Shown: piece after piece, positions 21,185-40,424 of the stretch | How the letters are laid out: every line of letters starts with the position of its first letter | How positions within the stretch are numbered: position 1 is the first letter of the stretch | DNA from: Sedimentisphaerales bacterium | Lineage (GTDB): Bacteria; Planctomycetota; Phycisphaerae; Sedimentisphaerales; Anaerobacaceae | Assembly (NCBI GenBank): GCA_016927855.1 | Contig: JAFGLV010000163.1 | Span: 1-56,901 of the forward strand | Direction of reading: 5' to 3' | Length of the DNA: 56,901 bases | Made by a program: the position numbers and the translations under genes | The notes under the pieces: generated by a model | Databases searched by the model: none | Seen by the model: only the letters and a program-made list of their open reading frames with translations | What the model was told of the DNA's origin: nothing

Positions 21185-21196
21185 GAGCAGTGAAGG

Positions 21197-22052: not shown

Positions 22053-22171
22053 TGCCAGTGTCTCACCCCGGATGTGTTCCGTGCCTCCTGTGGAGGGAGG
22101 GTCGTGGCGGAGCACGAAGGACGATCAGAGGGGTCCACCCAGCCCCTCGTCGTCGGTCATTCCGGAAGTAG

Positions 22172-22212: not shown

Positions 22213-22245
22213 CTACGAGCCGGAAGCCTGGAAAGGAGTACCACC

Positions 22246-23031: not shown

Positions 23032-23078
23032 CGAACGCCCCACGGCGTCACGACGAACCAGGTCTAAGGAGAACAACC

Positions 23079-23750
23079 ATGTCGATATTCGATAGAATCC
23101 GAAGAATCGCCGGCGCCAATATCAACTGGTTACTGGATAAGGTCGAGGTCCCCGAACAGGAACTGGAATCGAAGATCAAGGAGTTGGGCGAGACCATCCA
23201 GGAAGGGCGCGAGAGTGCCGCCGCGTACGGTGCGACGTTCCGGCGGTTGGAGCACGAGTACGAAGCGCTCGGACAACGACAGCAGGAACTGACGCAGCGC
23301 GCCGAGCAGGCGCTCAAGGCCGGTGACGAAGCCACGGCGCGACAGGCGCTGACCGAGAAGGTCGGTATCGCCGAGCGGGCCGCCCAGATCCAGCCCGGCA
23401 TCGAGAAGGGGCGCAAGACCTTCGAGATGCTGCGTGACAACCTGATGCGGCTCCAGGAGCAGCTCAAGAGCGCCAAGCTGAGACTGGCGGACCTGAAGGC
23501 GCGCAAGCGGACCGCCGAGGCGCAGAAGGCGTTCGATCAGCACCTGAGCAAGACGATGGGTCTCAGCGGCGAGAACGTCGCGTTCGACCGTCTGGAGGAC
23601 GATGTCCTGCAAACCGAAGCCGAGGTGGAGATTCGCCAGGAAATGCACGGCGACGCTCTCAGTGACGTCGAGCTGGCGCAACGCTCGCGCGAGCTTCAGA
23701 TCGAAGCGGAGCTCCAGGCGATGAAAGATCAGCTTGCCGATAAGTCGTAA
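23079..23750 (+). CDS. PspA/IM30 family protein, paralog 2
   Basis: MSIFDRIRRIAGANINWLLDKVEVPEQELESKIKELGETIQEGRESAA… with a coiled-coil body. SD AAGGAG precedes the ATG. Confidence 0.85.
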   Translation: MSIFDRIRRIAGANINWLLDKVEVPEQELESKIKELGETIQEGRESAAAYGATFRRLEHEYEALGQRQQELTQRAEQALKAGDEATARQALTEKVGIAERAAQIQPGIEKGRKTFEMLRDNLMRLQEQLKSAKLRLADLKARKRTAEAQKAFDQHLSKTMGLSGENVAFDRLEDDVLQTEAEVEIRQEMHGDALSDVELAQRSRELQIEAELQAMKDQLADKS

Positions 23751-23773
23751 AGGGCCTTGGAAAGGGCACGAAG

Positions 23774-24439
23774 ATGGCAGAGTTCATTACCGCCGCTTTC
23801 TCGCCGGTCAACGTCCTCTTCACGGCGTTGCTGCTCCTGATTGGGCTCTACTGGATCACAGTGATTCTGGGTGTGCTCGACGTCAACCTCTTCGACATCG
23901 ATCTACCCGATTCAGGCCTGGAAGGCGACCTCGACGCGGACGCAGGTGCAGACGTCGACGCGGAAGGCCTGGGCATCTTCCGCTCGATCCTGCACTTCTT
24001 CTACATCGGCGAAGTCCCCACGATGCTGCTGATCAGCGTTCTGGTCTTGAGTCTCTGGGCCTTTTCGATGCTGGGCAACTACTACTTCAACCCCAGCGGC
24101 TCGCTCCTGGTCGCGCTGCCGATCTTCCTGGTCAACTTGGTCGTCAGCGCGTTCGTGATGAAGGTGTGTGGGCTGCCGCTACAAAGGCTATATGCGATGC
24201 TGAACAAGGACTACAACGCGCCCGGCGACGTCATCGGGCGGATCTGCAAGGTCACAACCCTCCACGTGACCCAAGACAGAATGGGACAGGCCGAGGTCCC
24301 CACGAAAGGGGCGCCGATCGTCCTGAACGTCCTGTCCCAGGACGACCATGAATTCGTTCGTGGCGAAGAAGCGGTGGTTGTTGCTAAGGACAGCGAAAGA
24401 GGAACGTATCTAATTGCACCTGTGGATTTGGAGAAATAG
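23774..24439 (+). CDS. NfeD/YqiJ-like membrane protein (N-terminal TM helices + acidic linker + C-terminal OB-fold-like beta domain), the usual partner of SPFH/flotillin proteins
   Basis: Three or four TM segments (…LFTALLLLIGLYWITVILGVL…; …VPTMLLISVLVLSLWAFSML…; …LLVALPIFLVNLVVSAFVM…) and an acidic DLDADAGADVDAEG linker. C-terminal …GRICKVTTLHVTQDRMGQAEVPTKGAPIVLNVLSQDDHEFVRGEEAVVVA… resembles the NfeD OB-fold. Sits immediately upstream of the flotillin (3-nt gap). Confidence 0.6.
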   Translation: MAEFITAAFSPVNVLFTALLLLIGLYWITVILGVLDVNLFDIDLPDSGLEGDLDADAGADVDAEGLGIFRSILHFFYIGEVPTMLLISVLVLSLWAFSMLGNYYFNPSGSLLVALPIFLVNLVVSAFVMKVCGLPLQRLYAMLNKDYNAPGDVIGRICKVTTLHVTQDRMGQAEVPTKGAPIVLNVLSQDDHEFVRGEEAVVVAKDSERGTYLIAPVDLEK

Positions 24440-24441
24440 TC

Positions 24442-26424
24442 ATGAGCGATGCCGTGGTCGCCACCGTTATCGTGTTCGTCGTTCTCATCGGCATGGGCTT
24501 TCTGGCCCTGCTGGTCAAGTGCTACCGCAAAGTCCTGCAGGGTCAGGCGCTGATCCGCAATGGGGTCGGCGGGACGCGCGTCAGCTTCTCCGGCATGTTC
24601 ATCATCCCGGTCTTGCACCGCGCCGAGTATATGGACGTCTCGGTCAAGCGCATCGAGATCGACCGGCGCGCGCTGCAGGGATTGATCTGCAAGGACAACC
24701 TGCGCGCCGATATCGTCGTCGCCTTCTTCGTGCGCGTCAACAACACCGTCGACGATGTGATCAAAGTCGCCCAGTCACTAGGCTGCGAGCGTGCGTCAGA
24801 CCGCCAAGCGCTCGTCGAGCTGTTCGACGCGAAGTTCTCCGAGGCGCTCAAGACGGTCGGCAAGCAGTTCGATTTCTCCGAGCTGTACACCAACCGGATG
24901 CGCTTCCGCGAGCAGATCCTCGAAGTGATCGGGACCGACCTGAGCGGCTACGTTCTCGAAGACGCGGCCATCGATTACCTCGAACAGACCGACAAGAAGC
25001 TGCTGAATCCCGACAACATCCTCGATGCCGAAGGTATCAAGAAGATCACTGTCCTGACCGCCGAGCAGTTCGAACTGGCGAATGCTCGTGAGCGCGAGAA
25101 GGACAAGACCATCACGCAGCAGAATGTTGAGGCCCAGGAGGCCATTCTCGAACTCAACCGGCAACTGGCGGAAGCGGAAGCCAAGCAGAAACGGGAGGTG
25201 GTCAGTGTGCAAGCCCGCGAGGAGGCGGAGACCAAGAAGGTCCAGCAAGAAGAGCGCGAGAAGGGTGAGAAAGCACGCATCACCGCCGAAGAAGAGATCG
25301 CGGTGGCGGAGGAGAACCGTCAGCGGCAGATCATCGTAGCCTGCCGCAACAAGGAGCGCACCGACGCCGTTGAGACCGAACGGGTCGAGCGCGACAGAGG
25401 ATTGGAGGCGACGGAGCGCGAGCGGGTCGTCACCATCGCGCAGGTCGAGAAGGACAAGACCGTCGAAGCGGAGAAGAAGGAGTTGCAGTCGGTCATCCGC
25501 GAGCGTGTGATCGTCGAGAAATCGGTCGCGACCGAAGAGGAGCGTATCAAGGACGTACGGGAATTCGCCGGCGCCGACCGTAGCAAGCGCGTGCAGATCA
25601 CCAAAGCCGAAGAGGAAGCCGAGCAGGCGCTGGTCAAGGACATCAAGCAGGCGGAAGCCGCCAAGAAGGCACAGGAATTCTACGCCGAGCAAGCGGTGAT
25701 TGAGGCTCAGGCCAACCAGGACGCCGCGGTCAAGAACGCGGAGGCCAAAAAGACCCTCGCGGCCGCGTCGGTCAAAGAGCAAGCCGTCGAAGGCACCGCG
25801 GAGGCGGAAGTCATGGAGATCAAGGCGGCTGCGGTCGAGAAGTACGGCACCGCGGAAGCCAAGGTCATGGAGCTCAAGTACCACGCCGATGCCGACGGTA
25901 TCCGCGACAAGGCCGACGCGATGAAGATCTTCGACGCCGTTGGCAAGGAGCACGAAGAATTCAAGCTCCAGCTCAACAAGGACAAGGACATCGAGCTGGC
26001 CGAGATCGACGTCAGACGGCAGATTGCCGCCGAGCAGGCCAAGATCGTTGGCGAGGCGCTCAAGTCCGCCAAGATCGACATCGTCGGTGGTGAGAACCGC
26101 TTCTTCGAGCGGCTCGTCAATTCCATCGCGACCGGCAAGAGCGTCGATCATCTGGTCAAGCACAGCGAGGTGCTCACCGACGTCAAGGACAACCTGCTCG
26201 GTCCCGATATGGACGCCACGCGGAACCAGATTCAGAAGTTCGTCTCGCAGTTCGGACTCAGCTCCGAAGACATCAAGAACCTGACGATCTCGGCGCTGGT
26301 CCTGAAACTGATGGGCCAGGCGGACAAAGGCCAGAAGGGAATCCTCAGCGGAATCCTCAATACGGTCAAGGAGCTGGGAATCGCCGAGATGCCCGTCAAG
26401 AAGCTGGGGCTCGAAGCGAAGTAA
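24442..26424 (+). CDS. Flotillin-like SPFH/band-7 protein (YqiK/FloT-like) with a long EA-rich coiled-coil tail
   Basis: N-terminal TM anchor plus SPFH domain (…KCYRKVLQGQALIRNGVGGTRVSFSGMFIIPVLHRAEYMDVSVKRIEIDRRALQGLICKDNLRADIVVAFFVRVN…), then ~350 aa of heptad-rich E/A/K repeats typical of flotillins. Confidence 0.85.
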   Translation: MSDAVVATVIVFVVLIGMGFLALLVKCYRKVLQGQALIRNGVGGTRVSFSGMFIIPVLHRAEYMDVSVKRIEIDRRALQGLICKDNLRADIVVAFFVRVNNTVDDVIKVAQSLGCERASDRQALVELFDAKFSEALKTVGKQFDFSELYTNRMRFREQILEVIGTDLSGYVLEDAAIDYLEQTDKKLLNPDNILDAEGIKKITVLTAEQFELANAREREKDKTITQQNVEAQEAILELNRQLAEAEAKQKREVVSVQAREEAETKKVQQEEREKGEKARITAEEEIAVAEENRQRQIIVACRNKERTDAVETERVERDRGLEATERERVVTIAQVEKDKTVEAEKKELQSVIRERVIVEKSVATEEERIKDVREFAGADRSKRVQITKAEEEAEQALVKDIKQAEAAKKAQEFYAEQAVIEAQANQDAAVKNAEAKKTLAAASVKEQAVEGTAEAEVMEIKAAAVEKYGTAEAKVMELKYHADADGIRDKADAMKIFDAVGKEHEEFKLQLNKDKDIELAEIDVRRQIAAEQAKIVGEALKSAKIDIVGGENRFFERLVNSIATGKSVDHLVKHSEVLTDVKDNLLGPDMDATRNQIQKFVSQFGLSSEDIKNLTISALVLKLMGQADKGQKGILSGILNTVKELGIAEMPVKKLGLEAK

Positions 26425-26427
26425 GAC

Positions 26428-26454
26428 GTGTCGCGGGCAAGATGCCCGCGACAC
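26428..26454 (+). terminator. Perfect 12-bp-stem hairpin (GTGTCGCGGGCA-AGA-TGCCCGCGACAC) 4 nt after the flotillin stop; no U-tract, so it may be an attenuator or processing site rather than a full terminator
   Basis: Read directly from the sequence. Confidence 0.35.
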
Positions 26455-26516
26455 GAGAGCGCCCAACGTAACCTCAACCGATGAACGGTTTATAAGTTGA
26501 TAGGACTGACAAAGGC

Positions 26517-29500
26517 GTGACGATGGAGGAAAACGCAGTCCAGAACGGGACCGACTCAACGAACGCTGCGCCGGAGCAGACGGAGCTGCGCGGCGGGACG
26601 TACGAGATCCTCCGTTCCAGGCTCACCAACCACGGCAAGGAGCTTCGCAGCCGGCTGGGCAAGCTCAACGAAGCGCGCAAGCAGGTCTTCGGCGCCGTCG
26701 AGAGCAAGCTGCTCTCCAGCGAGCGGATTTCGACGGACAACAACTGCGTCCCTCGGGACATGGTCCCGATCGGCGACAAGTTCATCTTCGGGTACAACGT
26801 GTTTGTAGGCCTCCGCGCCGAGACGGTATTGGAGGACGTCTTCGCGATCTACCAGTGGAAGGACGGCACGTTCACCTCGCGTCCGCTCGATCTGATTCGC
26901 AACGCCGAGTTCGAGGCGGACTTCAAGAATCTCTATCGCTACTACCGCAAGACGGTGTTCGCGAAGTTCTCGGTGATCGGGCCGCACCTGTTCATGGTCT
27001 TTCGTGTCGGCCGCGATGTCGCGGACATCAAGACGTTCAAATGGCTCATCCGCGGCGGCGCGCTGGAGTACCAGGGCAACCGCAGCGACCATGAGTTCAT
27101 CTTCCCGCCGCAGCACGAGTTTGAGTGGCAGCGGGTCACGCAGGACATGTTCCGGCAGGGCAAGAACCCTCATATTTCCATCCAAGACCGCGTCTTCGTC
27201 GAGACCATCGGCGGCGATCTGACGATCAAGATAGAGGACAACACCGAGACCGGCGAAGGCATCTACGCCGAGCCGGTGGACAACCCCGACCAGATGCTCA
27301 GCGACGCCGAGATACGGTATGCGATTGTCGGTAGTCTGATCGTCTTGAAAATCCGGCCGTACGAAGAACAGCAATTCAGGTATTTCGTCTACAACGAGAA
27401 GATTCAGAAGGCCATCCGGCTCGACGCGATCGAGCAGGCCTGCATCCTGTTGCCCGAAGACCACGGTTTCGTCTTCCCCAAGGGCTACTACCTCAAGACG
27501 GGCGAGCTCAAGCAGTTCGAGACCCAGATGGATGACATGGTCTTCGAGAAGCGGCTCGATTCGCCCAATGGCGAAGACTGTCTTTACGTCTTTCACAACC
27601 GCGACAGCGGCGTTTACGTCCTGCTCTCGTACAACATCATCGAGCAGAAGATCAGCACGCCGGTCGTCTGCAACGGCTATTCTTTCTTCGAAGACGGCAC
27701 GCTGATCTACTTCCGCGCCAACGACGAGCCGAAGAAGCACCACGCGATCCAGGTCTGGCAGACGCCGTACTACGGCCCCGACTTCGTGATCCCGGTCAAG
27801 ACCGACTCGCAGCTCTACAAGATCGGCAACAAGGACATCGTGCGCTGCATGGCCGAGTGTACCGAGATCATCACGCTACTCGGCCAGGAGGAGACCTACG
27901 TCAACCTCTACCTCGACCTTGCCCGCAAGGCGGAGGAGGTTCAGGATGCCTACTTCTGGATCGACTCGGCGGAGCTATTCAACCTGGCCGAGCCGCTGGG
28001 CGCCATCCGTGACGCGGCCCGTGCGGCCGTGGACGAGTACGAGAAGGTCGTCCGCACGAAGGAGAACACGCGCGCCCAGATTGCCGAAGTCACGCAGCAG
28101 GTGCGCGAGATCGTCACGGCTATCGACTACAGCGGTTTGAACGAGATACACGAGTACGTCGAGCACCTGGCGCAGCTTCGTTCCATTCGGGGTCAGGTCA
28201 TATCGCTACGCGACCTGCGCTACGCCGATACGGAGATGATCGCATCGCTCGAAACAGAAGTGGCCGAGCATACCGACAAGCTCTCTCGCCAGTGCGTGGA
28301 GTTCCTGCTCAAGCCCGAGTCGCTCGATCCGTATCGCGCGAAGGCCGAGGGCTTTGGGCGACAGGTGCCTGAACTGGGGAAGGTGGCCGACGCCAGGCAG
28401 TTGCAGGAGCAGGTGGCTGAGACTGCCTCCAGCCTGGAAATGCTCACCGAGATCGTGAGCAATCTCAAGATCGAGGATGCGACGCAGACCATCGCGATCA
28501 TCGACAATATCTCCCTGGTCTATGCCGAAGTGAACCAGGTCAAGTCGGCGCTGAAGAACAAGCTCAACGAGATCGGCAAGATCGAAGGGCAGGCGGAGTT
28601 CAGCTCGCAGCTCAAGCTTATCGACCAGTCGGTCGTCAACTACCTCGACGTGTGCGACACGCCGGACAAGTGCGACGAATACCTCACCAAGGCGATGGTC
28701 CAGATCGAAAACCTCGAGAGCCGCTTTGCTGACTTCGAGGAGTTCGTCGTCCAGCTTGCCGACAAGCGCGAGGAATTGTACGACGCGTTCAACTCGCGTA
28801 AGGTCCAGCTCGTCGCCGCGCGCAACCAGCGCGCGTCCGCGCTGATGGCGTCCGCCGAGCGGATTCTCAAGGGCATCGAGAACCGCGTTCGCAACCTCAC
28901 CGACATCAATGAGATCAATGGCTACTTCGCGTCCGACCTGATGATCGACCGGATTCGTCAGACGATCGAGCAGCTCAAGCAGTTGGGCGACACCGTTAAG
29001 GCTCAAGATGCCGAGAGCCGGCTCAAGACCATCCACCAGGACGCGGTCCGCCAGCTCAAGGACAGGCAAGCGCTCTACGAGGAAGGCGAGAATGTCATCC
29101 GCCTGGGCAACCAGAAGTTTGCGGTCAACCGTCAGGCGCTGGAAGGCACGATCGTTCGCAAGGAAGGCAGGCTATTCTTCCACCTGACCGGCACCGGCTT
29201 TTTCGAGGCTATCGAAGACGAGTTGTTGGAGCAGACCAAGGACGTCTGGGACCTCGACGTGCTGTCGGAATCGCCTGGCGTCTACCGCGCCGAGTATCTG
29301 GCTTTCAAGATGCTCGAAAACCTACGCGCCGGTTCGCTGGTAGGGGCGACCCCCCGTGGCCGCCCTGGGCAGGCACAGAGACCTGACCCTACGCTTTCGG
29401 ACGTGCAGGCCTTCATGAGCCCGCGCTACAACGAGGGCTACGTCAAAGGCGTTCACGATCGCGACGCGGCCGCGATTCTCGAAGCCTTGTTGCAGCTTGA

Positions 29501-31853
29501 GTCGGCGATCGGCCTGTTACGCTACGGCACCGCTGCCCGCGCGCTGGCGACGGTATTCTGGCACGCGCGCCGAGACGACCACGACGCGCTGGCGGCGAGA
29601 ATCACCGGCATGGGCCGTGTCAATCGCCTGTTCGGTCCCAGTCCCGCACAGGCCGGGTACGTTACCGAAATCGAGACCCGTCTCATGACCTTTGTCAAAG
29701 AGACCCAACTCTTCGACCCCGGCCTTGTCAGCGAAGCGGCCGAGTACTTGTTCCACCAGCTCTCGAGTGAGGGCGGGTTCGTGGTCAGCCAAGTGGCTGT
29801 CGGCCTGAAGGAGGGATTCGAGAGACACCTGGAGCAGAGCCACTTCGGCGAGGAATTCGCCCAATCGAGACACGCCCTGGTGGGCGATCCGCTCAGTTGC
29901 TTCAGGCTGGTTCGGGATTGGGTGCGCTCGTATCTGCGCGGTGCCGACGGGCAGGATCGCGACGAATACGCCGATGAAGTGGCGACCTTGCTGTTGCCTG
30001 AGCTTGCGGAAGGCAGAGAAGTCGTGACCGCGAGCGTGGAGCAGGAACTGACCGGGCTCGTCGGTTCGCACCCGCTGATCGAGCAAGGCAATTATCGGCT
30101 CAATTACTGTCATTTCATGGCCAGGCTCCGTCACCACGAGCAGTGTATCGTCCCGAAGTTCACGCGGTACCAGGCGGCGCGCAACGCGCATGTCGAGTGT
30201 TACAGCAAGCAACTGCACCTGGAGGAGTTCCAGCCGCACGTGCTCACGACGTTCGTGCGCAACCGGCTCATCGACAAGATCTACCTGCCGCTGATCGGCC
30301 AGAACCTCGCCAAGCAGATCGGCGCCGAAGGCGAATCGAAACGGACCGACCGGCAGGGATTGCTGCTGTTGATCTCGCCGCCGGGCTATGGCAAGACCAC
30401 GCTGATGGAATACGTCGCCAACCGGCTCGGTTTGACCTTCGTGAAGGTCAACGGCCCGGCCGTCGGCAATCGCGTCACGTCGCTCGATCCGAACGAAGCG
30501 CCCAACGCCGCGGCGCGCCAGCAGCTCAAGAAGCTCAATCTCGCCTTCGAGATGGGCGACAACGTCATGATCTATGTCGACGACATTCAGCACACCAGCC
30601 CTGAGTTTCTCCAGAAGTTCATCTCGCTCTGCGACGCGCAACGCCGCATCGAAGGCGTTTACCGGGACCAGACGAGAACGTACGATCTGCGTGGCAAGCG
30701 CGTCTGCGTCGTGATGGCTGGCAATCCCTATACCGAGAGCGGCCAGCGCTTCCGCATTCCGGACATGCTCGCCAACCGCGCCGACACCTACAACATCGGC
30801 GACATCGTCGGCGACAACTACGACCAGTTCGCGCTGAGCTACATCGAGAACTGCCTGACGTCGAACCCGGTGCTGGAGACGTTGACGCGACGCAGCCAGA
30901 ACGACGCCTACGCCGTGATGAAGATGGCGGAGACCGACCAGCAGGAGGGCATCGATTTCGAGGGCAACTACACGGTCGAGGAAATCCACGAATACGTCGC
31001 AACAATGAAAAAGCTTCTGACGGTGCGCGACGTCGTGCTGAGGGTCAACCAGGAGTACATCCGCTCGGCCGGCCAGGCGAAGGAGTATCGCACGGAGCCG
31101 CCCTTCCTGCTACAGGGGTCGTACCGCAACATGAACCGGATCGCCGCGCGCGTATTGCCCATCATGAACGACCAGGAGCTCTGGACGTTGATTCACTCGG
31201 CCTACGAGCAAGACGCGCAGACGCTCACGACCGGCGCCGAGAACAACCTGCTCAAGTTCCGCGAGCTGACGGGCCGACTGACCGACGAGCAGGCCGCACG
31301 CTGGGCCGAAATCAAGCGCACCTTCCAGCGCAACGTCCTGTTGGGCGACGACACGGAAGACAAAGTCGGCAAGATGATCCGCCAGCTCAATGCTTTCTCG
31401 GCCGGTCTGGATTCGATCAAGGACGTCCTGGCACAGGGTGTCACGACGATGGCGCAAAGCCGAGCGGCAGAGCCTGCGTTGCGCGAAACCGACACGTTCA
31501 AAACCGCGGCCGACGACATCCTTGCCAAGATGGGACAACTGATCGCCGAGATCAAGCAGCAGCGCACCGTCGAGAGTGTGCGAGAGACGGCGCAACGCGC
31601 CGAGCAGACCAAGAGCGATTCGCGCACGCTCGTGTCGGTCCTAGAAGAGCAATTTAAGGCAATGGAGACCTGGCTGCTGCCGATGTCGCACGGCGACAAG
31701 GACGAGCGGGATCGCGTCATCGACCAACTGGCCGAACGGTTCGAGACGATGGTGCGCGGCTACACCAAGCTGATCGACGTACTCAAGAGCAAACGCGTCG
31801 GCGCAGATGCGCCGCCGAAGAAGACGACACGAAAGCCCCGCAGCGGGGAATAA
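26517..31853 (+). CDS. Giant (1778-aa) multidomain protein: beta-rich N-terminal region, extended coiled-coil middle, C-terminal AAA+ ATPase domain; function unknown
   Basis: Walker A …LLLISPPGYGKTTLMEY… (~30381-30404). Walker-B-like …DNVMIYVDDIQH… (~30568-30594). Sensor-like …VCVVMAGNPYT… and arginine-rich …RIPDMLANRADTYNIG…. No TM segments. In operon-like order after the flotillin and before pspA-3. Confidence 0.8.
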   Translation: MTMEENAVQNGTDSTNAAPEQTELRGGTYEILRSRLTNHGKELRSRLGKLNEARKQVFGAVESKLLSSERISTDNNCVPRDMVPIGDKFIFGYNVFVGLRAETVLEDVFAIYQWKDGTFTSRPLDLIRNAEFEADFKNLYRYYRKTVFAKFSVIGPHLFMVFRVGRDVADIKTFKWLIRGGALEYQGNRSDHEFIFPPQHEFEWQRVTQDMFRQGKNPHISIQDRVFVETIGGDLTIKIEDNTETGEGIYAEPVDNPDQMLSDAEIRYAIVGSLIVLKIRPYEEQQFRYFVYNEKIQKAIRLDAIEQACILLPEDHGFVFPKGYYLKTGELKQFETQMDDMVFEKRLDSPNGEDCLYVFHNRDSGVYVLLSYNIIEQKISTPVVCNGYSFFEDGTLIYFRANDEPKKHHAIQVWQTPYYGPDFVIPVKTDSQLYKIGNKDIVRCMAECTEIITLLGQEETYVNLYLDLARKAEEVQDAYFWIDSAELFNLAEPLGAIRDAARAAVDEYEKVVRTKENTRAQIAEVTQQVREIVTAIDYSGLNEIHEYVEHLAQLRSIRGQVISLRDLRYADTEMIASLETEVAEHTDKLSRQCVEFLLKPESLDPYRAKAEGFGRQVPELGKVADARQLQEQVAETASSLEMLTEIVSNLKIEDATQTIAIIDNISLVYAEVNQVKSALKNKLNEIGKIEGQAEFSSQLKLIDQSVVNYLDVCDTPDKCDEYLTKAMVQIENLESRFADFEEFVVQLADKREELYDAFNSRKVQLVAARNQRASALMASAERILKGIENRVRNLTDINEINGYFASDLMIDRIRQTIEQLKQLGDTVKAQDAESRLKTIHQDAVRQLKDRQALYEEGENVIRLGNQKFAVNRQALEGTIVRKEGRLFFHLTGTGFFEAIEDELLEQTKDVWDLDVLSESPGVYRAEYLAFKMLENLRAGSLVGATPRGRPGQAQRPDPTLSDVQAFMSPRYNEGYVKGVHDRDAAAILEALLQLESAIGLLRYGTAARALATVFWHARRDDHDALAARITGMGRVNRLFGPSPAQAGYVTEIETRLMTFVKETQLFDPGLVSEAAEYLFHQLSSEGGFVVSQVAVGLKEGFERHLEQSHFGEEFAQSRHALVGDPLSCFRLVRDWVRSYLRGADGQDRDEYADEVATLLLPELAEGREVVTASVEQELTGLVGSHPLIEQGNYRLNYCHFMARLRHHEQCIVPKFTRYQAARNAHVECYSKQLHLEEFQPHVLTTFVRNRLIDKIYLPLIGQNLAKQIGAEGESKRTDRQGLLLLISPPGYGKTTLMEYVANRLGLTFVKVNGPAVGNRVTSLDPNEAPNAAARQQLKKLNLAFEMGDNVMIYVDDIQHTSPEFLQKFISLCDAQRRIEGVYRDQTRTYDLRGKRVCVVMAGNPYTESGQRFRIPDMLANRADTYNIGDIVGDNYDQFALSYIENCLTSNPVLETLTRRSQNDAYAVMKMAETDQQEGIDFEGNYTVEEIHEYVATMKKLLTVRDVVLRVNQEYIRSAGQAKEYRTEPPFLLQGSYRNMNRIAARVLPIMNDQELWTLIHSAYEQDAQTLTTGAENNLLKFRELTGRLTDEQAARWAEIKRTFQRNVLLGDDTEDKVGKMIRQLNAFSAGLDSIKDVLAQGVTTMAQSRAAEPALRETDTFKTAADDILAKMGQLIAEIKQQRTVESVRETAQRAEQTKSDSRTLVSVLEEQFKAMETWLLPMSHGDKDERDRVIDQLAERFETMVRGYTKLIDVLKSKRVGADAPPKKTTRKPRSGE
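29339..29393 (+). repeat. In-frame intragenic copy of a GC-rich palindromic repeat (GGTAGGGGCGACCCCCCGTGGCCGCCCTGGGCAGGCACAGAGACCTGACCCTACG), encoding …GATPRGRPGQAQRPDPTL… inside the giant ATPase gene
   Basis: Nucleotide similarity to the intergenic elements at 22923-23031 and 35567-35649 (GTAGGGGC…CCCCGTG…GCCC…ACAG…CCCTAC). Confidence 0.5.
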
Positions 31854-31898
31854 CCATTCGTCCTGACCTCGGGTTTGTACAGACCATAGGCGACCACG

Positions 31899-32579
31899 AT
31901 GGGACGCATCGAGCGATTGAAAGCGGTGACCATGGCGCGGATCGAAGCCTTTCTGGCGTCGCTGGAAGAGCCTGAGACCGTCATTGGTCAACTGGTTCGC
32001 GAGATGGCAGACAAGGTGACGGAGGCGGCTCGCGCGGAGGCCAAGGCTCTCAGCGCCGTCAAAGCGGATCGTCGCCGGCTCGATGCCGCCAGCGGCCGGG
32101 TCGAACGCCTCGGCAAAGGTGCGACGCTCGCGGTCAAAGCCGACGAGCTCGACACAGCGCGCCAGGCCATCGCCGCCCAGATCGAGGCGGAGCGCGAGGT
32201 CGAGAAGTGCCGTGCGAGGCTGGAAACGTCCGAGTCGGCGTATCATTCAGCCGGAGGGGTACGCGCACAACTTCGGCGACAGCTCGACGAGCTCAGACTC
32301 CGCAAGGACGACATCCTTGCGCGCGTACGGGCTGTCCGACAGCGGGCGGAGACGCAAAATGTTGCGTCTCTACACGAGGGGGCTGGCGGTATTCTGGAGG
32401 CCATTGCCCGAATGGAGATGAAGGTTGACGAAGAGGAAGCCCAGATCGAAATACAGGACCAGATCAGGCAGACACTGGGCGCGACCTTCCAACACGAGCG
32501 GGCGGTCGAACTGGAAAACGACGCGGAAGTCAACCGCCGACTGGATGAGCTAAAGACGCGCGTCCGCCGGGACGAATGA
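31899..32579 (+). CDS. PspA/IM30 family protein, paralog 3
   Basis: MGRIERLKAVTMARIEAFLASLEEPETVIGQLVREMADKVTEAARAEAKAL… parallels paralog 1, with a coiled-coil body. Starts 46 nt after the giant ATPase stop. Confidence 0.85.
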   Translation: MGRIERLKAVTMARIEAFLASLEEPETVIGQLVREMADKVTEAARAEAKALSAVKADRRRLDAASGRVERLGKGATLAVKADELDTARQAIAAQIEAEREVEKCRARLETSESAYHSAGGVRAQLRRQLDELRLRKDDILARVRAVRQRAETQNVASLHEGAGGILEAIARMEMKVDEEEAQIEIQDQIRQTLGATFQHERAVELENDAEVNRRLDELKTRVRRDE

Positions 32580-33992
32580 AGCCGCGCTCTCGCTGTCAGC
32601 GGTGGGCCGCAAATTCAAACATGCCTGCAACCGCGCGCGGAAGAACGGACTGAGGAATCCCAGAAGCATATAGGGCGCACTCAGCGCATAAAGACAGAGA
32701 CCGATGATCGCCCCTGCTACAATGGCCTGCAAGATCACCCCTGGAATCTCCGAGGCGCTTGGCCCAGAAGGAAGCACAGACAGAAGCACGGCGAACGCGA
32801 CCAGCATGGCAGCCACACCAGCGACGATCATCCACACAGCCAGCCACAGCATGAAGGGACCGGGCCGATAGAGTGTTCGACACAAGCGGGAGGCAGCGGC
32901 CGGTGCGAGAATCAGCACTCCACCTATAGTGCCGAGAAAGACCATGAAGACGGTTGTTTCTTCCGAAGACGCCGTGCCGTATGAAATGACGCTCAGACCG
33001 GCAACCGCCAGGAATAGGACAAACGCAGCAGCCATGCGCACGACGCCGCGCCGTCCGAGCGCGGGAACCACCAGCCACAGCAACGTCACCCCGACGACCA
33101 GTGACTGAAGAAGCGCGTCGAACTGTATCGCGGATGACGAAGACATGTCCAGCATCGCCCTGAGCAAGAGATAGGCCAAGTTTACGACAGCCAGAGGGAT
33201 GAGAAGCAGCAGTACGCGGCGATTTCGATTGGCCTTGAGCCCCACTGCCGCCACAATCAAGACCAGCCAGACGAGCAGTCCGGACGCCGTGTCGTACCAG
33301 CGCCATTCGAAGAGCGACGCCTGGCCTTGGTGGGGTCCCAAGTCGCCGATATTCGCCGAGGGGACAATCCGGAACTGCCCGAATGCGGTTAGCGGTACTC
33401 GCCACGAGTACGAACAGGTGCTAGCGCCTCAGCCATACTCGAAGTCGTCGTTCGCGATGGCCCTGTCCCCTCGGTACACGGTAAAAGTGGCCCGATTGTC
33501 TGCCCGTCTCGGTGCGGCATACTCCTCGCCGCCGATTCCCCGCAACTGGTAGTTCAGAACCAGTACACGTCCCTGGCGCTTGATCTGGATTGTCTGTTGT
33601 AGCGGGCCGCCTGCTTTCAGCACGGCCGTCTTGTCTGGGGCTACCTCAAGATGGCGCAATTTTGTCAGGCCTTGGGCTTGGCACGTGTAGTCGTCCCTCA
33701 GGGTCAACTGCTTGACGCGGTACGTGCCAACCGGCAGTTCGATGGTCCCGCGGAGGTTGCTCCATTCCTCGGTATGGCCGTCGTCGCGTTCCAGCAGGAG
33801 CCGCGCGATGTGCGTTCCCTCGATCTTCAACTTGCCCTTCGGCTGGTCCGCGTCCTGCGCCCGGGCGGCGGAAACGGCCCCGCCCAAGGCCATCAGGCCA
33901 GCCGCCAACAGCCGACAGACGACTTTTTTTGAAATCCGGCCAGATTTCATGTCCCCTTTTCCGCTAGTGCGCACTGTAAGTAGAGACGCCAC
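32550..33992 (-). CDS. Candidate selenoprotein, paralog A: signal peptide + ~150-aa beta domain ending …DFEYG, in-frame TGA (33429-33431), …GASTCSYSWRVP…, then fused in frame to a ~260-aa polytopic (about 8 TM) membrane domain
   Basis: ORFs 33429..33992(-) and 32550..33341(-) share one frame across the TGA (…DFEYG*GASTCSYSWRVPLTAFGQFRIVPSANIGDLGPHQGQASLFEWRW…). A SECIS-like hairpin lies 17 nt downstream of the TGA. selA and selB are on the same strand nearby. Confidence 0.5.
33394..33412 (-). promoter_or_regulatory. SECIS-like hairpin for paralog A (mRNA GUACUCG-UGG-CGAGUAC)
   Basis: Seven-bp stem, 3-nt loop, beginning 17 nt 3' of the in-frame UGA. Confidence 0.45.
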
Positions 33993-34043: not shown

Positions 34044-35545
34044 TCAATGGCGATAGATCGTGAGCGTCCGCGTTCCCGTCACCGTGCCGTAGAGTCTGCC
34101 GGTCTCGTAAGTGGCGGTGATCGTGAAGGTCTCCTCGTTGCCGTTCAGTTCCAGGTCTTGTGGTACTCGCCACGAGTACCCGCAGGTGCCGCCTCAGCCG
34201 AAGGGCATCGGGCCCTCCGCGACAGTCTTGCCGGACGCGTTTGTGATCTTGATCGTCGGCGCGACGGACTCGAACATATCCATTTCGCGACCGCTGGGCA
34301 GGTTCGCCGAGCCTGTCTTCTTCGTGGTATCCTCCAAAGCGGAGATCATCATACCATTAGCGAGGTCACAGAGCATCGCTTCGACCTTTAGCGTCTGGCC
34401 TGTCTTGACACGCTGGCCGCCGGTCGGACTCTTGAAGACTACTTCAGGTTTGGCCGAGAAATCGAGCACGAAGGGCGTGTCCTCTCGGATCGTGATGAAG
34501 AAGCTGATCGGGGTGGCGTCTGGCTTGCCTAGCTGCGCGGTGTCCACCCCCAAGCCGATGCGCCGTTGATCGTAGCGTACCGCCATCCGAAACGGTCGGT
34601 AGTCACCGACCGGCAGGCTTAGTTTGCCATCCTTATGCGGGCATTCGTCGACATCGATCAAGGCGTCCCTGCTGTAGACCCAGCCGAATTCGAGCGTCGG
34701 CGCCGCCATATCCCGGCCGCCCGCGCCGGTTTCGAGCACGCCGAACGGGCCTGCATACGGTGCCACCGTCACTTTGTCTCCCGCCGGTGTCGCCGAGAGG
34801 CGGTAGAACGTACCTTTCACGGACCGCCAGTACCCGGCCAAGGGAAGGGACTCGGTGGTGCCGTTCAGAAAGGTGCCGGTCATCGGCGTGTCGTACCGAC
34901 CTGCAATCGTGTGAGCCTGGCCGAGCACCAACTCCACTTCGCGCGAGCCGAGCATGATCTTGCCCTTGCGCGCGGTAGGCGCCGCGAAGAACATGTAGGT
35001 GGTTTCTCCCATACCCCGCAGGCGAGGCATGACGGTCTGCGTGAACGTGCCCTGGCCGGGGCCGTAGTCCATCTCGATTTGGATGTTCTCGAAGAGGATG
35101 TCTCCCGACCGGTTTTGCATGCCGTCAGAAGTTCCATCGGCTCGACCGAGGAAGGGATCGTTGGTCAAGTCGCCGTCGCGGTTCACGTCGAAGTAGAGAC
35201 GGTCATAGTCTGTACCCGCCGACCTGTCGAGCGCGAAATTGTAGCGCAGTCCCGCCTGTGGGTCGAACAAGCTCATGGCGAACGTAACGGCGCCATAGAT
35301 GGGCTCGTCGGACTTGAACGCCGGGTAGGTGACGCCCTCGATCGGCGTGCGGCCGCATTCGGTCGTCGGCTGGCCGGACATGAGCTGCATTTGACGCGGT
35401 CGGGACAGTCAAAGATGGAAACCTCTTCCATCGCATAGACCTTCCCGGCCGCTGCCGGGCTTTCCGCGGCCCCGATCGGCACCGCCTGCGAAAGGCCGAG
35501 CAGCGCCACGCTCAGCAGAGCGAAGGCCATTGCGTTGTCCTTCAT
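34044..35545 (-). pseudogene. Candidate selenoprotein paralog B: …PMPFG, TGA (34194-34196), then GGTCGYSWRVPQDLELNGNEETFTITATYETGRLYGTVTGTRTLTIYRH. A 1-nt frameshift near 35390-35410 separates the signal-peptide exon (35400-35545) from the body, so it is a pseudogene or a sequencing error
   Basis: N-terminal MKDNAMAFALLSVALLGLSQA…VSIFDCPDRV is in a different frame from …MQLMSGQPTTECGRTPIEGVTYPAFKSDEPIYG…. Alignment to paralogs C, D and E restores continuity with a single-base indel in an AAA run. Confidence 0.45.
34162..34180 (-). promoter_or_regulatory. SECIS-like hairpin, paralog B (GGUACUCG-UGG-CGAGUACC)
   Basis: Eight-bp stem starting 13 nt 3' of the UGA. Confidence 0.45.
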
Positions 35546-35566
35546 GTTCGACCTCCTTCAGCAACA

Positions 35567-35649
35567 TCGTAGGGGCAACCCCCCGTGGTTGCCCCTTCGA
35601 CAAGCTCAGGGCAAGCTCAGGGCGGGCACAGGGGCCCGCCCCTACAGGG
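35567..35649. repeat. Intergenic GC-rich palindromic element (GTAGGGGCAACC-CCCCGTG-GTTGCCCC … CAAGCTCAGGGC x2 … GGGCGGGC-ACAGGGG-CCCGCCC-CTACAGGG)
   Basis: Same hairpin modules as the element at 22923-23031 with the loops exchanged, plus a 12-nt tandem duplication. Confidence 0.55.
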
Positions 35650-35671
35650 CACACTGAAAACGCACACAATG

Positions 35672-37249
35672 CTATTGTCCTGACGCACCTCGGTATATGG
35701 TAATCTCGCGCTGGCCGATGACGGTTCCGTACAGGGCCTTGGTGTCATAGGTAGCCGTGATGGTGAAGGTCTCTTCGTTGCCGCCGAGCTGCAGGTCTTG
35801 CGGTACTCGCCACGAGTACCCACAGGTGCTGTCTCAGCCGAACGGCATGACGCCGTCAGCGACGACCTGACCGTTGGCGCGAGCAATCGTGACTTTCGGA
35901 TTCAATTGGTCTCGCTCGCGGATCGCGCGAAACATGATGTCCAGCGCCGGGTCGATCAGCACCGCTTTGACGTCCAACTGCTCGCCTGCCCGAACGCGAC
36001 AGTCCTTGGCGGGTGAGGCAAACAGGACCTGCGGCTTGCCTGAAAAGTCCAGCACGAAAGGCGCGTCCTCGCGGATCTTGATGGCATAAACCGCCGGGCC
36101 GGCCTGCGCGCGGCCGCCGGGCTGGCCATCGGCGTGGTTGTTACGTAGAGTCAGGCAGTTCAGCTTGTCGTAGGTTACGTTGAGCATCTGGATCGCGTAG
36201 TCTCCTACCGGCACGCGAAAGGAGTTGGAGCGATTCGCGGTCTGGCTTCCCAACCCTTCGGTCAGGCTGACCGCGATGTCTTCCGAGGCCAGCGAACCCG
36301 TTGCCTGCACGCGCTCGACGCTGCGCTGTCCTGCCTTGACCTCCAGCGTGCCGAAAGCTCCCTGGTAAGGCCATACGAAGAGCTTGTCGCCGCTCGGTGT
36401 CGCTCCAAGGCGATAGTAGGTGTCACCCTTGCGATGCATAGCCATGAGTTGCTCGCCGCCGTACCATGAGACCGTCGGCCGGCCGCTCGGATCACCTGGC
36501 GCAAGCAGAAAAAGACCGGTGGCGGGATGATCGAACCGGCCGGGGATTCCGCGCGTGTGGCACAGCACGGCCGTGAAGCGTTCGCCGCCGATTTCTATTT
36601 CGCCCATCCACGCCTTCGTCGTGGTGAGTATGGCAAAGCTCCGGCTGCCTGGATAGCGGAGGAAACGCGGCATGACTTCCAGTTGGTGCTGAGGATCGTC
36701 ACCCGGTGCTACCCGCAGTTTCAAGGGCTCGAAACACCTTTCAGATACTCCTGAATTCGATGCACCGGGATTCATCAGGGCTTTGTTTGGAACGTCCTTC
36801 GTCGGCGACAGACAGGTGTCGTCGGTCAGATCGCCGTTGCGGTTCGTGTCAAGGTAGAGACGGTCGTAGCCCTGGCCGGTGCCTTCGGATTCGTCGAAGG
36901 CAAACGCATAGTGGTACGGTGTATCGGGCTCTGTAGTCGCGCCGCCAACCTGGAGCGAGCCATACAGCGGCTTGTCCGATTTGAACGAAGGGTAGGCCTC
37001 AACGTTTTTGTCCGCTTCCGTCTGGCATTCACAGTAGGCGCCGACGAGCAGCCGGCTGCGCAGAACCTCAGGCGCATCGAAGGTGGAGATCTCCTTGAGC
37101 TCGAACGCGGCCGCGTCTGCTGGTGGAGACGAGGACTCCGCTCCCATCGTCGCGGCGGCGAAGCTCCCGAAAAGCAGCAGAATCACAAGACCTCGTCGGA
37201 CTGCTTTTCCGCTTGCCCGCTGCCTCGTAGTGGCTCTTTCCTGGCACAT
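35672..37249 (-). CDS. Candidate selenoprotein paralog C (secreted, 471 aa + Sec + 53 aa): …GVMPFG, TGA (35834-35836), DSTCGYSWRVPQDLQLGGNEETFTITATYDTKALYGTVIGQREITIYRGASGQ
   Basis: Signal peptide. CxC motif (CECQTE). EF-hand/dockerin-like loop YLDTNRNGDLTDD. The post-UGA frame is conserved at protein level relative to B, D and E, with synonymous nucleotide differences. Confidence 0.55.
35802..35820 (-). promoter_or_regulatory. SECIS-like hairpin, paralog C
   Basis: GGUACUCG-UGG-CGAGUACC, 13 nt 3' of the UGA. Confidence 0.45.
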
Positions 37250-37280
37250 AATCGTTCCTTTCTCGTATTGAGGTCCGTGT

Positions 37281-38855
37281 TCAATTCCGAGTGACAGTGA
37301 ACGTGCGTTTGCCGACGACCGTCCCGTAAAGCTCCCGGGTATCGTAGGTTACGGTAATGGTGGAGGTTTCTTCGTCGCCGTCGAGGGGCAGATCGTTCGG
37401 TACTCGCCACGAGTACCCGCAGGTGCCGTCTCAGCCGAAGGGCAGGACGCCTTCAGCCACCGTCGTGCCGTCGGCGCGCGCGATTACGACGCTGGGGTCG
37501 AGCGAGGTCGACTCTCCTGATTCGGACTGATGGTGCAGTTCGCGAATCATGAAGTCCAGGACTGGGTCGATCAGAACAGCCTTGACCATCAGCTCCTCAC
37601 CTCGCTTGATCCGGCACTCCTTGCCCGGCAGCGCGAACATCACTTCCGGTGGGTTGGAGAAATCGAAGACGAACGGCTTGTCCGTCCGAATTCTGATTCC
37701 ATAGACGGGCGGTCTATTTACCGCGGCGCGAGGTTGACCGTCGGCATGGTAGTTGTTTGAAAGGCCGATGCGCAGGCTTCCATAGTCGAGACGGACGAAG
37801 CTGGGATGGTAATCGCCCACCGGCAGACGAGAGGTTCGAACGGCATACTGGAGGCCGCTACTCAATACGTCCCCTATCGGGACAGCGGTGTCCTCCGACT
37901 GCAACGATCCCTCGATCGCCATCGTTTCGAGACTACGTCCGCCTGCGCCCACCTCCAACGTCCCGAGCGGGCCATCGTAGGAGCGGACGGTCAGCTTGTC
38001 ACCGGCCGGCGTCGCTGCAAAGCGATAGAAGGTGTCCCCGATCTTATGCGTGGCCATCAGACGGTCGCCACCCCACCAACTGGCGCCTGAGCCGCGCTCC
38101 GGCATCAGGTGCAGCGCAGTCCAGGGCTGGTCGAACCAGCCGGTGACGCCGTAGTTGTGTCCCAGCAGGACGGTGAACTTCTTGCCGGCGATGGTGACTT
38201 GACCGCGTCTGGCTCTGGTGGTGACGAACGCCACGTGGCCGCATCCACCTGCCGCCAGATATAGGCGCGGCATGACCTCCAGCGGGTGGGCGCCTTCCGA
38301 TCCGAACGGCAGCGGGACATCGGCATACTCGAAACAGACTTGCTGTCGGGCCGGCAACCCATCGAGCGTGGCTCCGTCGGGAGGGTCCTTCAAGCGTTTG
38401 CACGCAGGGTCGTTGGTCAGATCAAGGTCTCGATTCGAATCGAAGTACAGCCGATCGTATCCCTGTCCCGTACCGCCGGACTCATCGAGCGCGAAGCAGA
38501 AGCGCAAGCCTGAATCCGCCTGGTAGGCGCTCCCGGCGAAGGAGGCGGAGCCATAGATGGGCTTGTCCGACTTGAAGCTAGGGTAAGTCGTCACGTTAGG
38601 GTCCGCTGTCTCGCTGCAAGGACAACGCTGGCCGATTCCGAAAGAGGATAGTCCCTGGGCCAGATCGAAAGCCGAGACCTCTTTGAGGTTAGAAGCTGTC
38701 GCGCGGATCCAGAACATCAGGATCGCTGCGACCAGGAACAGGACGAGCGCGCCCACTACGGACAACCCCAGTAGTCGCTTTGGATGTTTCATGCCTGAGT
38801 CCCTCGTGATCCGGGCGGCTGTCTCTTGTTCACTCTTATAAAGGTGTCCGAACAC
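37281..38855 (-). CDS. Candidate selenoprotein paralog D (474 aa + Sec + 49 aa): …GVLPFG, TGA (37431-37433), DGTCGYSWRVPNDLPLDGDEETSTITVTYDTRELYGTVVGKRTFTVTRN
   Basis: N-terminal TM/signal anchor. CPCSETAD motif. YFDSNRDLDLTNDP loop. Same C-terminal module as the other paralogs. Confidence 0.55.
37399..37417 (-). promoter_or_regulatory. SECIS-like hairpin, paralog D
   Basis: GGUACUCG-UGG-CGAGUACC, 13 nt 3' of the UGA. Confidence 0.45.
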
Positions 38856-38867
38856 TGTGTCCTCACG

Positions 38868-40424
38868 CTAGCGACCGAGAGACCGCGTCGCTTTGTCGGG
38901 CGACGCCTCGGGTCGACAGATCACGACCTGACGCTCGGCAGTCACTGCACCATACAACTGACGGGTGTCATAGGTCACGGTGATGGTGAAGGTCTCTTCG
39001 TTGCCGTCGAGTGGCAGATCGTCCGGTACCCGCCACGAGTACCCGCAGGTGCCGTCTCAGCCGAAGGGCAAGGCGCCTTCGGCCACCGCCGTGCCGTTGG
39101 CGCGGGCAATCGTGACCTTGGGAGCGAGCGAGACGGAAGGCCCTCCTTCGCGCCGATAAGAGAGGCCGCGAATCATGAAGTCCAGGACCGGGTCGATCAG
39201 GACGGCTTTGATCGTGAGTTGCTCGCCGCGCCGGACGCGCTGGCCTTTGGCGGGCTGGGCGAACATCACCTCCGGCGTGTTGAAGAAATCGAAGACGAAA
39301 GGCTTGTCCGCGCGAATCTCGATCCCATAGACAGGTGGTCGGGTCGTCCCGCCGCGTGGCCGGCCATCGGCGTGGTAGTTGTTCGAAAGCGTGATGCGCA
39401 GATCCCCGTATTCGAGATCGAGCAGCCTGGGAGCATAGTCGCCCACCGGCAGGCGCCACAGGCGGGTGGGTTCCTGAGTCCCGTTGTTCAGGACGTTGCC
39501 TACCGGGACGGCGGTATCCTCCGATTGCAGCGATCCTCTCATTGCCATCGTTCGGACATTGCGGTCGGCCGGACCGACTTCCAGCGTCCCCAGCGGCCCA
39601 TCGTGGGGACGGACCGTCAGCTTGTCTCCGGCCGGCGTCGCTGCGAAGCGATAGAAAGTGTGACCGATCTTGTGTATCGCCATCAGCCGGTCGCCACTCC
39701 ACCAGGTGTAGCCTCGGTCGCGGTTGCTGGGACCGATCAGGTGCAGTGCCGTCTGGGGGTGGTCGAACCAGCCGGCGATGAGGTTGTTGTGTCCCAGCAG
39801 GACATCGAACGTCTGGCCGGCCACCGTGATCTTTCCGAACCTGCCTTTGGTGGTGACGAACGCAACATAGCGGCGGTCGCCTTCGTATACGATCAGTCTC
39901 GGCATGACCTCCAACGGACGTGTGCCTTCCGACCCGAACGTCAGCGGGATGCCGATGCACTCGAAACAAGCCTGCTGCTGGATCGACGCGCCGCTCAGGA
40001 GCATCTGTCCCGGCGGGTCTGGTACCCGTGCCAGCACACCGTCGTCAGTCAGATCGAGGTTCCGGTTCGCATCGAAGTAGAGCCGGTCGTAACCCTTGTC
40101 TGTGCCGCCGGACTCATCCACTGCGAAACAGAAGCGCGTACCTGAGTCTGCCTTGTGAGGATCGCTGCCGAAGCGGACGGAGCCATAGAGCGGCTTCTGT
40201 GACGCGAATACTGGGTAAGCTGTTACCTCAGCATCCGCGGCCTCGCTGCACAAACACCGCAGGCCGGTACGGAAGGCGGATTTCAATTTGGCCAGATCGA
40301 CGGCCGATGCTTCCTCAAGGTCGAAGACCAACGCCTCACTGCCATGCACCGACACCGCCGCAAGCAGGATCAATGCGAACCCGCTTGTCACGATTCTCTC
40401 CGAAACGCGCCTTGGCCGGTTCAT
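38868..40424 (-). CDS. Candidate selenoprotein paralog E (455 aa + Sec + 62 aa): …GALPFG, TGA (39057-39059), DGTCGYSWRVPDDLPLDGNEETFTITVTYDTRQLYGAVTAERQVVICRPEASPDKATRSLGR
   Basis: Signal peptide MNRPRRVSERIVTSGFALILLAAVSVHG. CLCSEAAD motif. YFDANRNLDLTDD loop. Confidence 0.55.
39025..39043 (-). promoter_or_regulatory. SECIS-like hairpin, paralog E (GGUACUCG-UGG-CGGGUACC; an A-to-G change gives a U-G wobble that preserves the stem)
   Basis: Read directly from the sequence. Confidence 0.45.

Follow-up and report, generated by a model that had tools for sequence, protein, structure and literature searches.

The window analysed here is the whole of a 56,901-bp contig from a metagenome-assembled genome (MAG) of the Sedimentisphaerales (Planctomycetota). 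Its reverse strand carries paralog A, one of six related genes of the window, which very probably encodes a membrane-fused selenoprotein with selenocysteine (Sec) at an in-frame UGA. The TGA concerned, at 33431..33429, lies in frame between an open reading frame (ORF) for a signal peptide and a beta-domain (33992..33429) and an ORF for a membrane domain (33341..32550). Translation of 33992..32550 meets this single stop and reads ...DFEYG-(stop)-GASTCSYSWRVPLTAFGQFRIVPSANIGDLGPHQGQASLFEWRW... across it (in a longer excerpt, ...DDFEYG-(stop)-GASTCSYSWRVP...), in agreement with an earlier note on this DNA, which had proposed that the TGA joins the two ORFs in one frame. The beta-domain ORF of 187 aa described in that note is real as an ORF. 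The more likely start, however, is the ATG at 33950, preceded by AAAAGGGGAC, which gives a pre-Sec part of 173 aa identical to the NCBI protein JW993_19450. In the public annotation the gene is split into JW993_19450 (173 aa) and JW993_19445 (234 aa), both hypothetical, and the start called for the second lies inside the first transmembrane (TM) helix, TM1. The 3' end overlaps the convergent pspA gene (PF04012), as had been noted before, by exactly 30 nt.

The proposed coding sequence (CDS) begins with a signal peptide that has a positively charged n-region, a hydrophobic core and an AxA site. A periplasmic module, the TGA, a short motif with a Cys, a hairpin, a linker and the membrane domain follow in this order (Table 1). 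The DNA of 27 related loci was compared with the window, and 25 orthologs, the window included, were placed in a codon alignment. In 23 of the 27 loci the matched gene carries, all in one frame, the module, the in-frame TGA, the motif, the hairpin and the membrane domain. The other four are a locus with the junction masked by Ns (L012), a locus truncated at the 5' end (L025), a locus with an uninterrupted gene (L015) and a locus in which the junction was resolved on reanalysis (L023). When second copies are counted, there are 30 fused Sec-type genes from 28 sequences, including the window. They share G(G/AS)xC-x-YSWRVP, the hairpin and an open continuation of 281-312 aa in which 5-8 segments are hydrophobic; the identity of their membrane domains falls as low as 27% (MAGs of Thermoguttaceae and Planctomycetaceae). 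Coding selection runs across the TGA junction. The entropies at the three codon positions of the 25 orthologs are 0.98/0.69/1.44 in the linker after the TGA, 1.05/0.86/1.54 in the module and 1.25/0.85/1.55 in the TM domain, and the 50 codons past the TGA contain no stop in frame, versus 34 and 30 in the other frames.

It is very improbable that paralog A consists of two separate genes as annotated, with the UGA ending a secreted protein of 173 aa and the membrane protein starting at a downstream non-ATG codon. The current NCBI annotation takes this form, and the homologs in the databases are all called as separate ORFs (150-187 aa and 234-290 aa). The TTG at 33341 is the sole start candidate upstream of TM1; it has no Shine-Dalgarno-like sequence, and no ATG occurs between the TGA and TM1, in line with the statement in the earlier note that an unfused membrane ORF would need a non-ATG start without an obvious ribosome-binding site. 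No start codon between the TGA and TM1 is conserved among the 25 orthologs (the best column is start-capable in 14), and no promoter-like or terminator-like site was found at the TGA/TM1 junction; an independent promoter and start for the membrane ORF had been named as what would speak against the fusion. The called starts of the membrane-part homologs are scattered, some of them inside TM1, and the sequence upstream of TM1 is conserved. Furthermore, coding selection acts on the linker ahead of every possible start, and this linker has no stops in 25/25 orthologs; the frame relation is kept in all 30 genes, and uninterrupted fusions exist.

These uninterrupted fusions were identified in a profile search with the membrane domain against 1.84 billion representatives, which gave 1,087 relatives at E <= 1e-3 (50%-identity cluster representatives). 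Most of the best 150 of the 1,087 begin at the first profile positions, as expected for ORFs cut at the UGA. Nine of the same best 150 encode module and membrane domain as a single uninterrupted ORF (P0075, P0076 (the gene of locus L015), P0089, P0145, P0158, P0159, P0084, P0122 and P0182). The two parts are kept in one frame in 30 Sec-type genes and fused in nine uninterrupted ORFs; this outcome of the comparison with homologs suggested in the earlier note supports its core claim that a UGA read as Sec fuses the periplasmic module to the membrane domain. Its expectation of a Cys at the junction of fused homologs failed: the residues at the Sec position of the nine are G, S, T, R, P, S, A, a gap and P. 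Searches over the Sec site, with short and long forms, returned only proteins ending at the TGA. The nearby Cys179 is present in 25/25 Sec-type genes and lost in 8/9 of the non-Sec homologs; the joint gain or loss of Sec and Cys speaks for a function as a pair. In L015, which belongs to a Pirellulales MAG (CAYQXM010000001.1; positions 3281, 7242-8550 and 9165), two Sec-type fused genes flank an uninterrupted paralog, the loop of which has lost both Sec and Cys (FERSSGFSYRWHVP). Judged by sequence, this looks like a natural pair with and without selenium in one locus.

The window contains 6 copies of the hairpin GTACTCG-TGG-CGAGTAC where chance would give 0.2, and each of the 6 comes after an in-frame TGA with the motif [FY]G-U-x(2-3)-[ST]-C-x-YSWRVP. 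Its recurrence after TGA is far beyond chance. Every hairpin in the window and the related loci has an in-frame TGA upstream, with 51 TGA sites in the window and 27 loci. All 6 window copies fold into a stem of 7-8 bp with a UGG loop and G/U in the apical loop. The spacing from UGA to hairpin is 14 nt in 22 orthologs, 17 nt in two (including the window) and 11 nt in one, and the spacers of 14, 17 and 11 nt track a Sec-Cys gap of three, four and two residues: U-G-G-T-C in most genes, U-G-A-S-T-C in the window and in L003 (position 5920), and U-S-T-C in L023 (position 8004). If the hairpin is a selenocysteine insertion sequence (SECIS), it appears to tolerate a 6-nt range of UGA spacing. The codons of the hairpin are nearly invariant in the orthologs (TAC 25/25, TCG 25/25, CGA 24/25, GTA 23/25); elsewhere in these genes the same codons make up 0.49, 0.25, 0.14 and 0.14 of their synonymous families, respectively. 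The three variants are only CGG and GTG, with pairing kept by G-U wobble, and the flanking codons vary freely (four codons for Pro186, TGC or TGT for Cys179). Synonymous sites that are frozen in the hairpin while their neighbours vary point to a constraint at the RNA level on top of the one at the protein level. This is as expected for a bacterial SECIS, and the identification of the hairpin as such an element is strongly supported; binding of SelB is predicted. At gathering thresholds, Rfam matched only a tRNA in the window and gave no family for the hairpin.

The same data leave next to no probability for a pseudogene or assembly error, in which the TGA would have arisen in a once-continuous gene by nonsense mutation or through faulty sequencing. 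In its favour, the sequence comes from a MAG and an apparent frameshift is seen in the adjacent paralog B, but the same TGA is found in 25/25 orthologs and the 51 sites come from independent assemblies, always with the hairpin, and the comparative data effectively refute this explanation. Some uncultured bacteria reassign UGA, and it could be read here as a standard amino acid such as Trp or Gly. This reassignment is hardly credible, since paralogs B and D of the array end with TGA as a normal stop codon, which argues that UGA is not reassigned in this lineage. In addition, in-frame TGAs occur only within a single motif with the hairpin behind it, and selA, selB and a tRNA-Sec are linked to the cluster.

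Upstream of paralog A, on the same strand, lie four tandem long-form paralogs, B to E, which have about 400-500 aa before Sec and 49-62 aa after it, the post-Sec part being without TM helices. The short-form paralog F is divergent from selA and lacks the membrane domain; only paralog A of the six continues into one. The selB and selA genes immediately precede the array in the same orientation, and the genes for Sec decoding are thereby embedded in the cluster. In the related locus L001 the cluster is flanked by selB, and a tRNA-Sec with anticodon TCA occurs within a few kb of the fused gene in 5 of 19 related loci. The coordinates are summarized in Table 1.

Table 1. Features of paralog A, of the surrounding window and of related loci (positions are those of the window unless a locus is named)
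Feature	Position	Strand	Description
Paralog A, recoded CDS	32550..33950	-	466 aa + stop; ATG 33950, Sec codon 174, TAG 32552..32550
Signal peptide MKSGRISKKVVCRLLAAGLMALGGAVSAARA/QD (MKSGRISKK...AARA/QD)	33858..33950	-	hydropathy and direct sequence reading; cleavage site inferred
Pre-Sec periplasmic module, aa 32-173	33432..33857	-	first immunoglobulin (Ig)-like beta-sandwich and most of second, by homology to P0075 model
In-frame TGA, proposed Sec174 codon	33429..33431	-	TGA in 25/25 orthologs
Cys179 codon TGT, proposed Sec174 partner (U-G-A-S-T-C)	33414..33416	-	Cys in 25/25 Sec-type orthologs
SECIS-like hairpin GUACUCG-UGG-CGAGUAC	33395..33411	-	7-bp stem, 17 nt past UGA; encodes Y-S-W-R-V
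Post-Sec strands and linker, aa 180-222, SYSWRVPLTAFGQFRIVPSANIGDLGPHQGQASLFEWRWYDTA	33285..33413	-	coding periodicity; P0075 model
Seven-helix membrane bundle, aa 223-433	32652..33284	-	N-out, C-in by positive-inside rule
Cytoplasmic tail	32553..32651	-	short amphipathic helix PFFRARLQACL (aa ~435-445), disordered end; overlaps pspA
Four tandem long-form paralogs B, C, D, E	34044..40424	-	upstream of A; PFG-TGA-xxTCGYSWRVP and same hairpin
In-frame TGA codons of paralogs B-E	34196..34194, 35836..35834, 37433..37431, 39059..39057	-	long forms
Paralog B, main frame	34044..35390	-	
ORF overlapping paralog B	35273..35545	-	90 aa, other frame
selB	41158..43083	-	641 aa; GTP_EFTU and SelB winged-helix domains
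selA	43089..44513	-	474 aa; PF03841, 2e-139
Paralog F, short form	44776..45420	+	QYG-U-GGTCRYSWRVP; TGA 45292..45294; 41-aa post-Sec extension
ORF after paralog F	45392..46369		outer-membrane barrel of Phenol_MetA_deg type
MASE3/HisKA_3 sensor kinase	19259..21184		
LuxR-type response regulator	21197..21850		
Two adjacent PspA/IM30 genes	22195..22929, 22929..23750		
DUF3686/DUF7902/AAA ATPase	26517..31853		1778 aa
Third PspA gene (pspA)	31899..32579		PF04012; convergent with paralog A
tRNA-Sec, L011	11336..11430		anticodon TCA
tRNA-Sec, L014	13939..14033		anticodon TCA
tRNA-Sec, L021	16313..16407		anticodon TCA
tRNA-Sec, L023	16038..16131		anticodon TCA
tRNA-Sec, L024	10824..10919		anticodon TCA

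The long-form paralogs had no matches to Pfam or NCBIfam families. Paralog B has no signal peptide in its main frame; a signal peptide is encoded by the overlapping ORF in another frame, together with an N-terminal part that is homologous to that of paralog C (E = 4e-5). Around 35390-35400 this homology passes from one frame to the other, and this has the appearance of a 1-nt frameshift, whether from an assembly error, in a pseudogene or as a programmed event. The long forms (34194..40424) contain an N-terminal motif, YDRLY(F/L)DxNR(N/D)xDLT(D/N)D, with a sequence resemblance to a calcium-binding loop of the DxNxD type. The ORF after paralog F was considered as a detached membrane domain of the paralog A type and rejected (BLASTP E = 0.93). 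In 44776..48415 (+), paralog F is followed by this barrel, an NMT1-like solute-binding protein and an ATP-binding cassette (ABC) permease; this arrangement may represent a transport operon expressed together with a member of the selenoprotein family.

Structure prediction for the post-TGA part of paralog A gave seven TM helices and a short C-terminal helix, with a predicted local distance difference test score (pLDDT) of 70-92 in the bundle. The eight TM helices of the earlier note are therefore to be replaced by seven and one amphipathic tail helix. Hydropathy and the positive-inside rule place the N-terminus outside and the C-terminus inside, with KANRNRR, GRRGVVR, SRLCRTLYRP and the FFRARL tail in the cytoplasm. 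Asn241, which is part of KANR, is invariant in the seven-helix domain whether Sec is present or not, and Cys357 in the cytoplasmic loop between TM5 and TM6 is conserved likewise; the prediction assigns both conserved residues, Cys357 and Cys444, to loops on the cytoplasmic side and not to TM helices. For the Sec loop the homolog P0075 was modelled, which is uninterrupted, 38% identical and has the same length of the junction loop; the alignment was bridged by the uninterrupted fusions and included both halves from the window. The model (pLDDT 88.9, predicted template modelling score 0.77) places residue 167, the Sec equivalent, in a tight turn between the strands 156-162 and 171-176. The strands 171-176, 183-190 and 204-208 and a short aromatic helix follow the Sec position before TM1, and this segment, equivalent to aa 180-222 of paralog A, belongs to the second Ig-like domain. 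The Sec/Cys motif had previously been put just before TM1, whereas about 45 residues, with three beta-strands, lie between Sec and TM1.

By this model, a product ended at the UGA would lose three strands of its own domain, which is a further point against the two annotated genes. It also bears on a selenium-dependent dual output, with a truncated soluble module under scarce selenium and the membrane-fused form when selenium is available, both of them functional. In bacteria Sec insertion competes with termination by RF2 and is usually incomplete, so that some truncated product is to be expected, and the short-form paralog F represents a membrane-free version of the module. The truncated product of paralog A, however, would end before the three strands, whereas paralog F keeps its post-Sec strands, and the sequence gives no indication that the fragment has a function of its own. 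Such a dual output is considered improbable.

With high confidence, 33950..32550 (-) is a single selenoprotein gene, in which the UGA is read as Sec and the module is fused to the membrane domain. In the proposed mechanism, SelB recruited by the hairpin 14-17 nt downstream would read the UGA at 33431..33429 as selenocysteine, and the ribosome would continue into the ORF annotated as a separate membrane protein. The product of 466 aa would have a cleavable signal peptide, two periplasmic Ig-like beta-sandwich domains, a bundle of seven TM helices (N-out, C-in) and a short cytoplasmic helix. According to the model, Sec174 and Cys179 would be located in the tight turn between two strands of the second sandwich, followed by three further strands and TM1.

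Several observations weigh against this reading. No homolog with Cys in place of Sec was found among the nine uninterrupted homologs or in the searches over the Sec site, and the support customarily sought for a selenoprotein is therefore missing; such homologs are a customary computational criterion and not a biochemical requirement. The fold-energy z-scores of the 55-nt regions after the UGA are not significant, and the case for a SECIS thus rests on conservation and on the constraint at synonymous sites, not on stability. YSWRV is itself conserved, so that the conservation of the hairpin DNA is partly at the protein level. Neither selC nor selD was seen within the 57-kb window. The geometry of the Sec loop comes from P0075, a non-Sec homolog with the identity given above, and remains a model. 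The case for Sec insertion is computational and the organism is an uncultured MAG, and the redox or ligand role considered below, as well as any role of the seven-helix domain, is inferential.

Paralog A had no Pfam or NCBIfam match, and among the 22 alignment members none was better than E = 0.014. A sequence profile of the membrane domain found nothing below E = 0.77 in the PDB, and a Foldseek search against the PDB gave a best E of 1.4, with template modelling scores < 0.35. The label "transporter-like" of the earlier note is thus unsupported by Pfam, NCBIfam, PDB sequences or PDB folds. Known transporter and redox-relay membrane families (MFS, MerT, DsbD/CcdA) were rejected, as they have no sequence or fold similarity. 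A thioredoxin-fold UxxC/CxxU oxidoreductase was rejected as well: Sec lies in a turn between Ig-like strands, with UxxxC or UxxxxC in all but one ortholog. Ig/fibronectin type III-like ectodomains (cytokine receptor ectodomains, MG domains of alpha-2-macroglobulin, bacterial adhesin repeats) have a generic fold likeness at 4-14% identity, but neither the Sec/Cys turn nor a fused seven-helix bundle.

DUF1573 is a beta-sandwich domain common in Planctomycetes and Bacteroidetes. OS_HP2/DUF1573 (NF041425, PF07610) is the only family with a hint of a match, which was seen for paralog F only and spanned the Sec position. Membership was rejected, as the score was 12 bits (E = 0.21) where the cutoff is 100; paralog A had no match to NF041425 and none to PF07610 at E <= 1. 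OS_HP2/DUF1573 selenoproteins carry a UGC (UxC) motif according to two papers (PMC2398784, PMC9312934). In contrast, the motif found here is U-x(2-4)-C followed by YSWRVP (U-GG-T-C, U-GAS-T-C, U-S-T-C).

In SelB-decoded bacterial selenoprotein genes, of which fdhF of E. coli is the paradigm, a SECIS hairpin stands immediately 3' of the UGA. The present genes resemble them in the UGA, in the conserved hairpin 11-17 nt further on inside the CDS with G/U at its apex, in the adjoining selA and selB, in the tRNA-Sec nearby in relatives and in the frame kept beyond the UGA. They differ in a protein unrelated to any catalogued selenoprotein family, in six paralogs with near-identical SECIS in one locus, and in a polytopic membrane product with an extracytoplasmic Sec. 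Membrane-associated bacterial selenoproteins named in one review (PMC9312934) are a MerT-like mercuric transport protein, an E1-E2 cation ATPase (UxxC), NqrE and YeeE/YedE. Paralog A shares with this group the combination of Sec and a polytopic membrane protein, and its chalcophilic Sec/Cys site could bind soft metals or metalloids. However, there is no sequence or fold relation, and Sec is in a periplasmic Ig-like domain, not in a membrane segment or a metal-binding domain. The glycine reductase selenoprotein A, GrdA, is a family without known Cys-containing homologs (PMC1794560). Paralog A is like it in that no Cys-for-Sec homologs were found; GrdA, however, is a small cytoplasmic catalytic subunit of unrelated fold, whereas here non-Sec relatives exist that have lost the whole U..C pair. 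In the literature searched, no description of the present family turned up in the deep-Sep paper, in two reviews on the selenoproteomes of prokaryotes (2022 and 2026) or under phylum-specific terms, with the 2022 review covered for membrane and periplasm terms only. The decoding mechanism is the known bacterial one; what is apparently new is the protein family, which occurs across Planctomycetota, its membrane-fused member, the tandem arrays beside sel genes and the lack of Cys forms.

Elsewhere the seven-helix domain is found with GLUG-motif repeats replacing the Ig module (P0130) and with a cytoplasmic TerB (tellurite-resistance) domain (P0122). In the homologs P0122, P0130 and P0118 it behaves as an independent, mobile membrane module. 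Its occurrence with other ectodomains and with TerB argues that it is an independent module and probably more than an anchor. A stretch of the window (19259..32579) resembles an envelope-stress neighbourhood, with the sensor kinase, the response regulator, the three PspA genes and the large ATPase listed in Table 1. The pair of PspA and DUF3686-AAA genes adjoins the fused gene in the window, L001 and L003, and this synteny is limited to close relatives. The PspA, DUF3686-AAA and HisKA_3/LuxR neighbours give a hint of an envelope-stress context.

A Sec-x(2-4)-Cys pair on an exposed periplasmic beta-turn most readily suggests a redox centre or a ligand site. It is doubtful, though conceivable, that Sec174 and Cys179 form a redox-active selenenylsulfide or a ligand site for soft metals or metalloids at the outer face of the membrane, with the seven-helix domain as more than an anchor. 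With low confidence, paralog A may be regarded as one of a tandem family of otherwise secreted paralogs with the same Sec loop, namely the one that is tethered to the membrane. The broader reading, which is offered tentatively as a possibility, takes it as the membrane-tethered representative of a superfamily of extracytoplasmic selenoproteins that would be undescribed and spread throughout Planctomycetota, with tandem arrays beside selA/selB/selC and no Cys counterparts. In that superfamily the Sec-Cys hairpin on an Ig-like domain might couple to the new seven-helix domain as a selenium-dependent periplasmic device for redox reactions or for the handling of chalcogens or metals, possibly as a sensor or relay across the membrane. 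A role in redox or metal handling or in sensing would agree, though weakly, with the TerB domain fused in one homolog and with the envelope-stress neighbourhood around the PspA genes.

The majority of selenoproteins in bacteria are rare Sec versions of enzymes that are widespread in a Cys form (PMC1794560). If the interpretation given here is true, a paralog-rich family of extracytoplasmic selenoproteins within a sel cluster, without Cys versions, would be unusual, and many genes of Planctomycetota are probably mis-split into two "hypothetical proteins". The compact, nearly invariant SECIS and the new seven-helix domain family would be open to direct study. The family would also suggest that selenium has a specific function in the cell envelope of anaerobic Planctomycetota from sediment.

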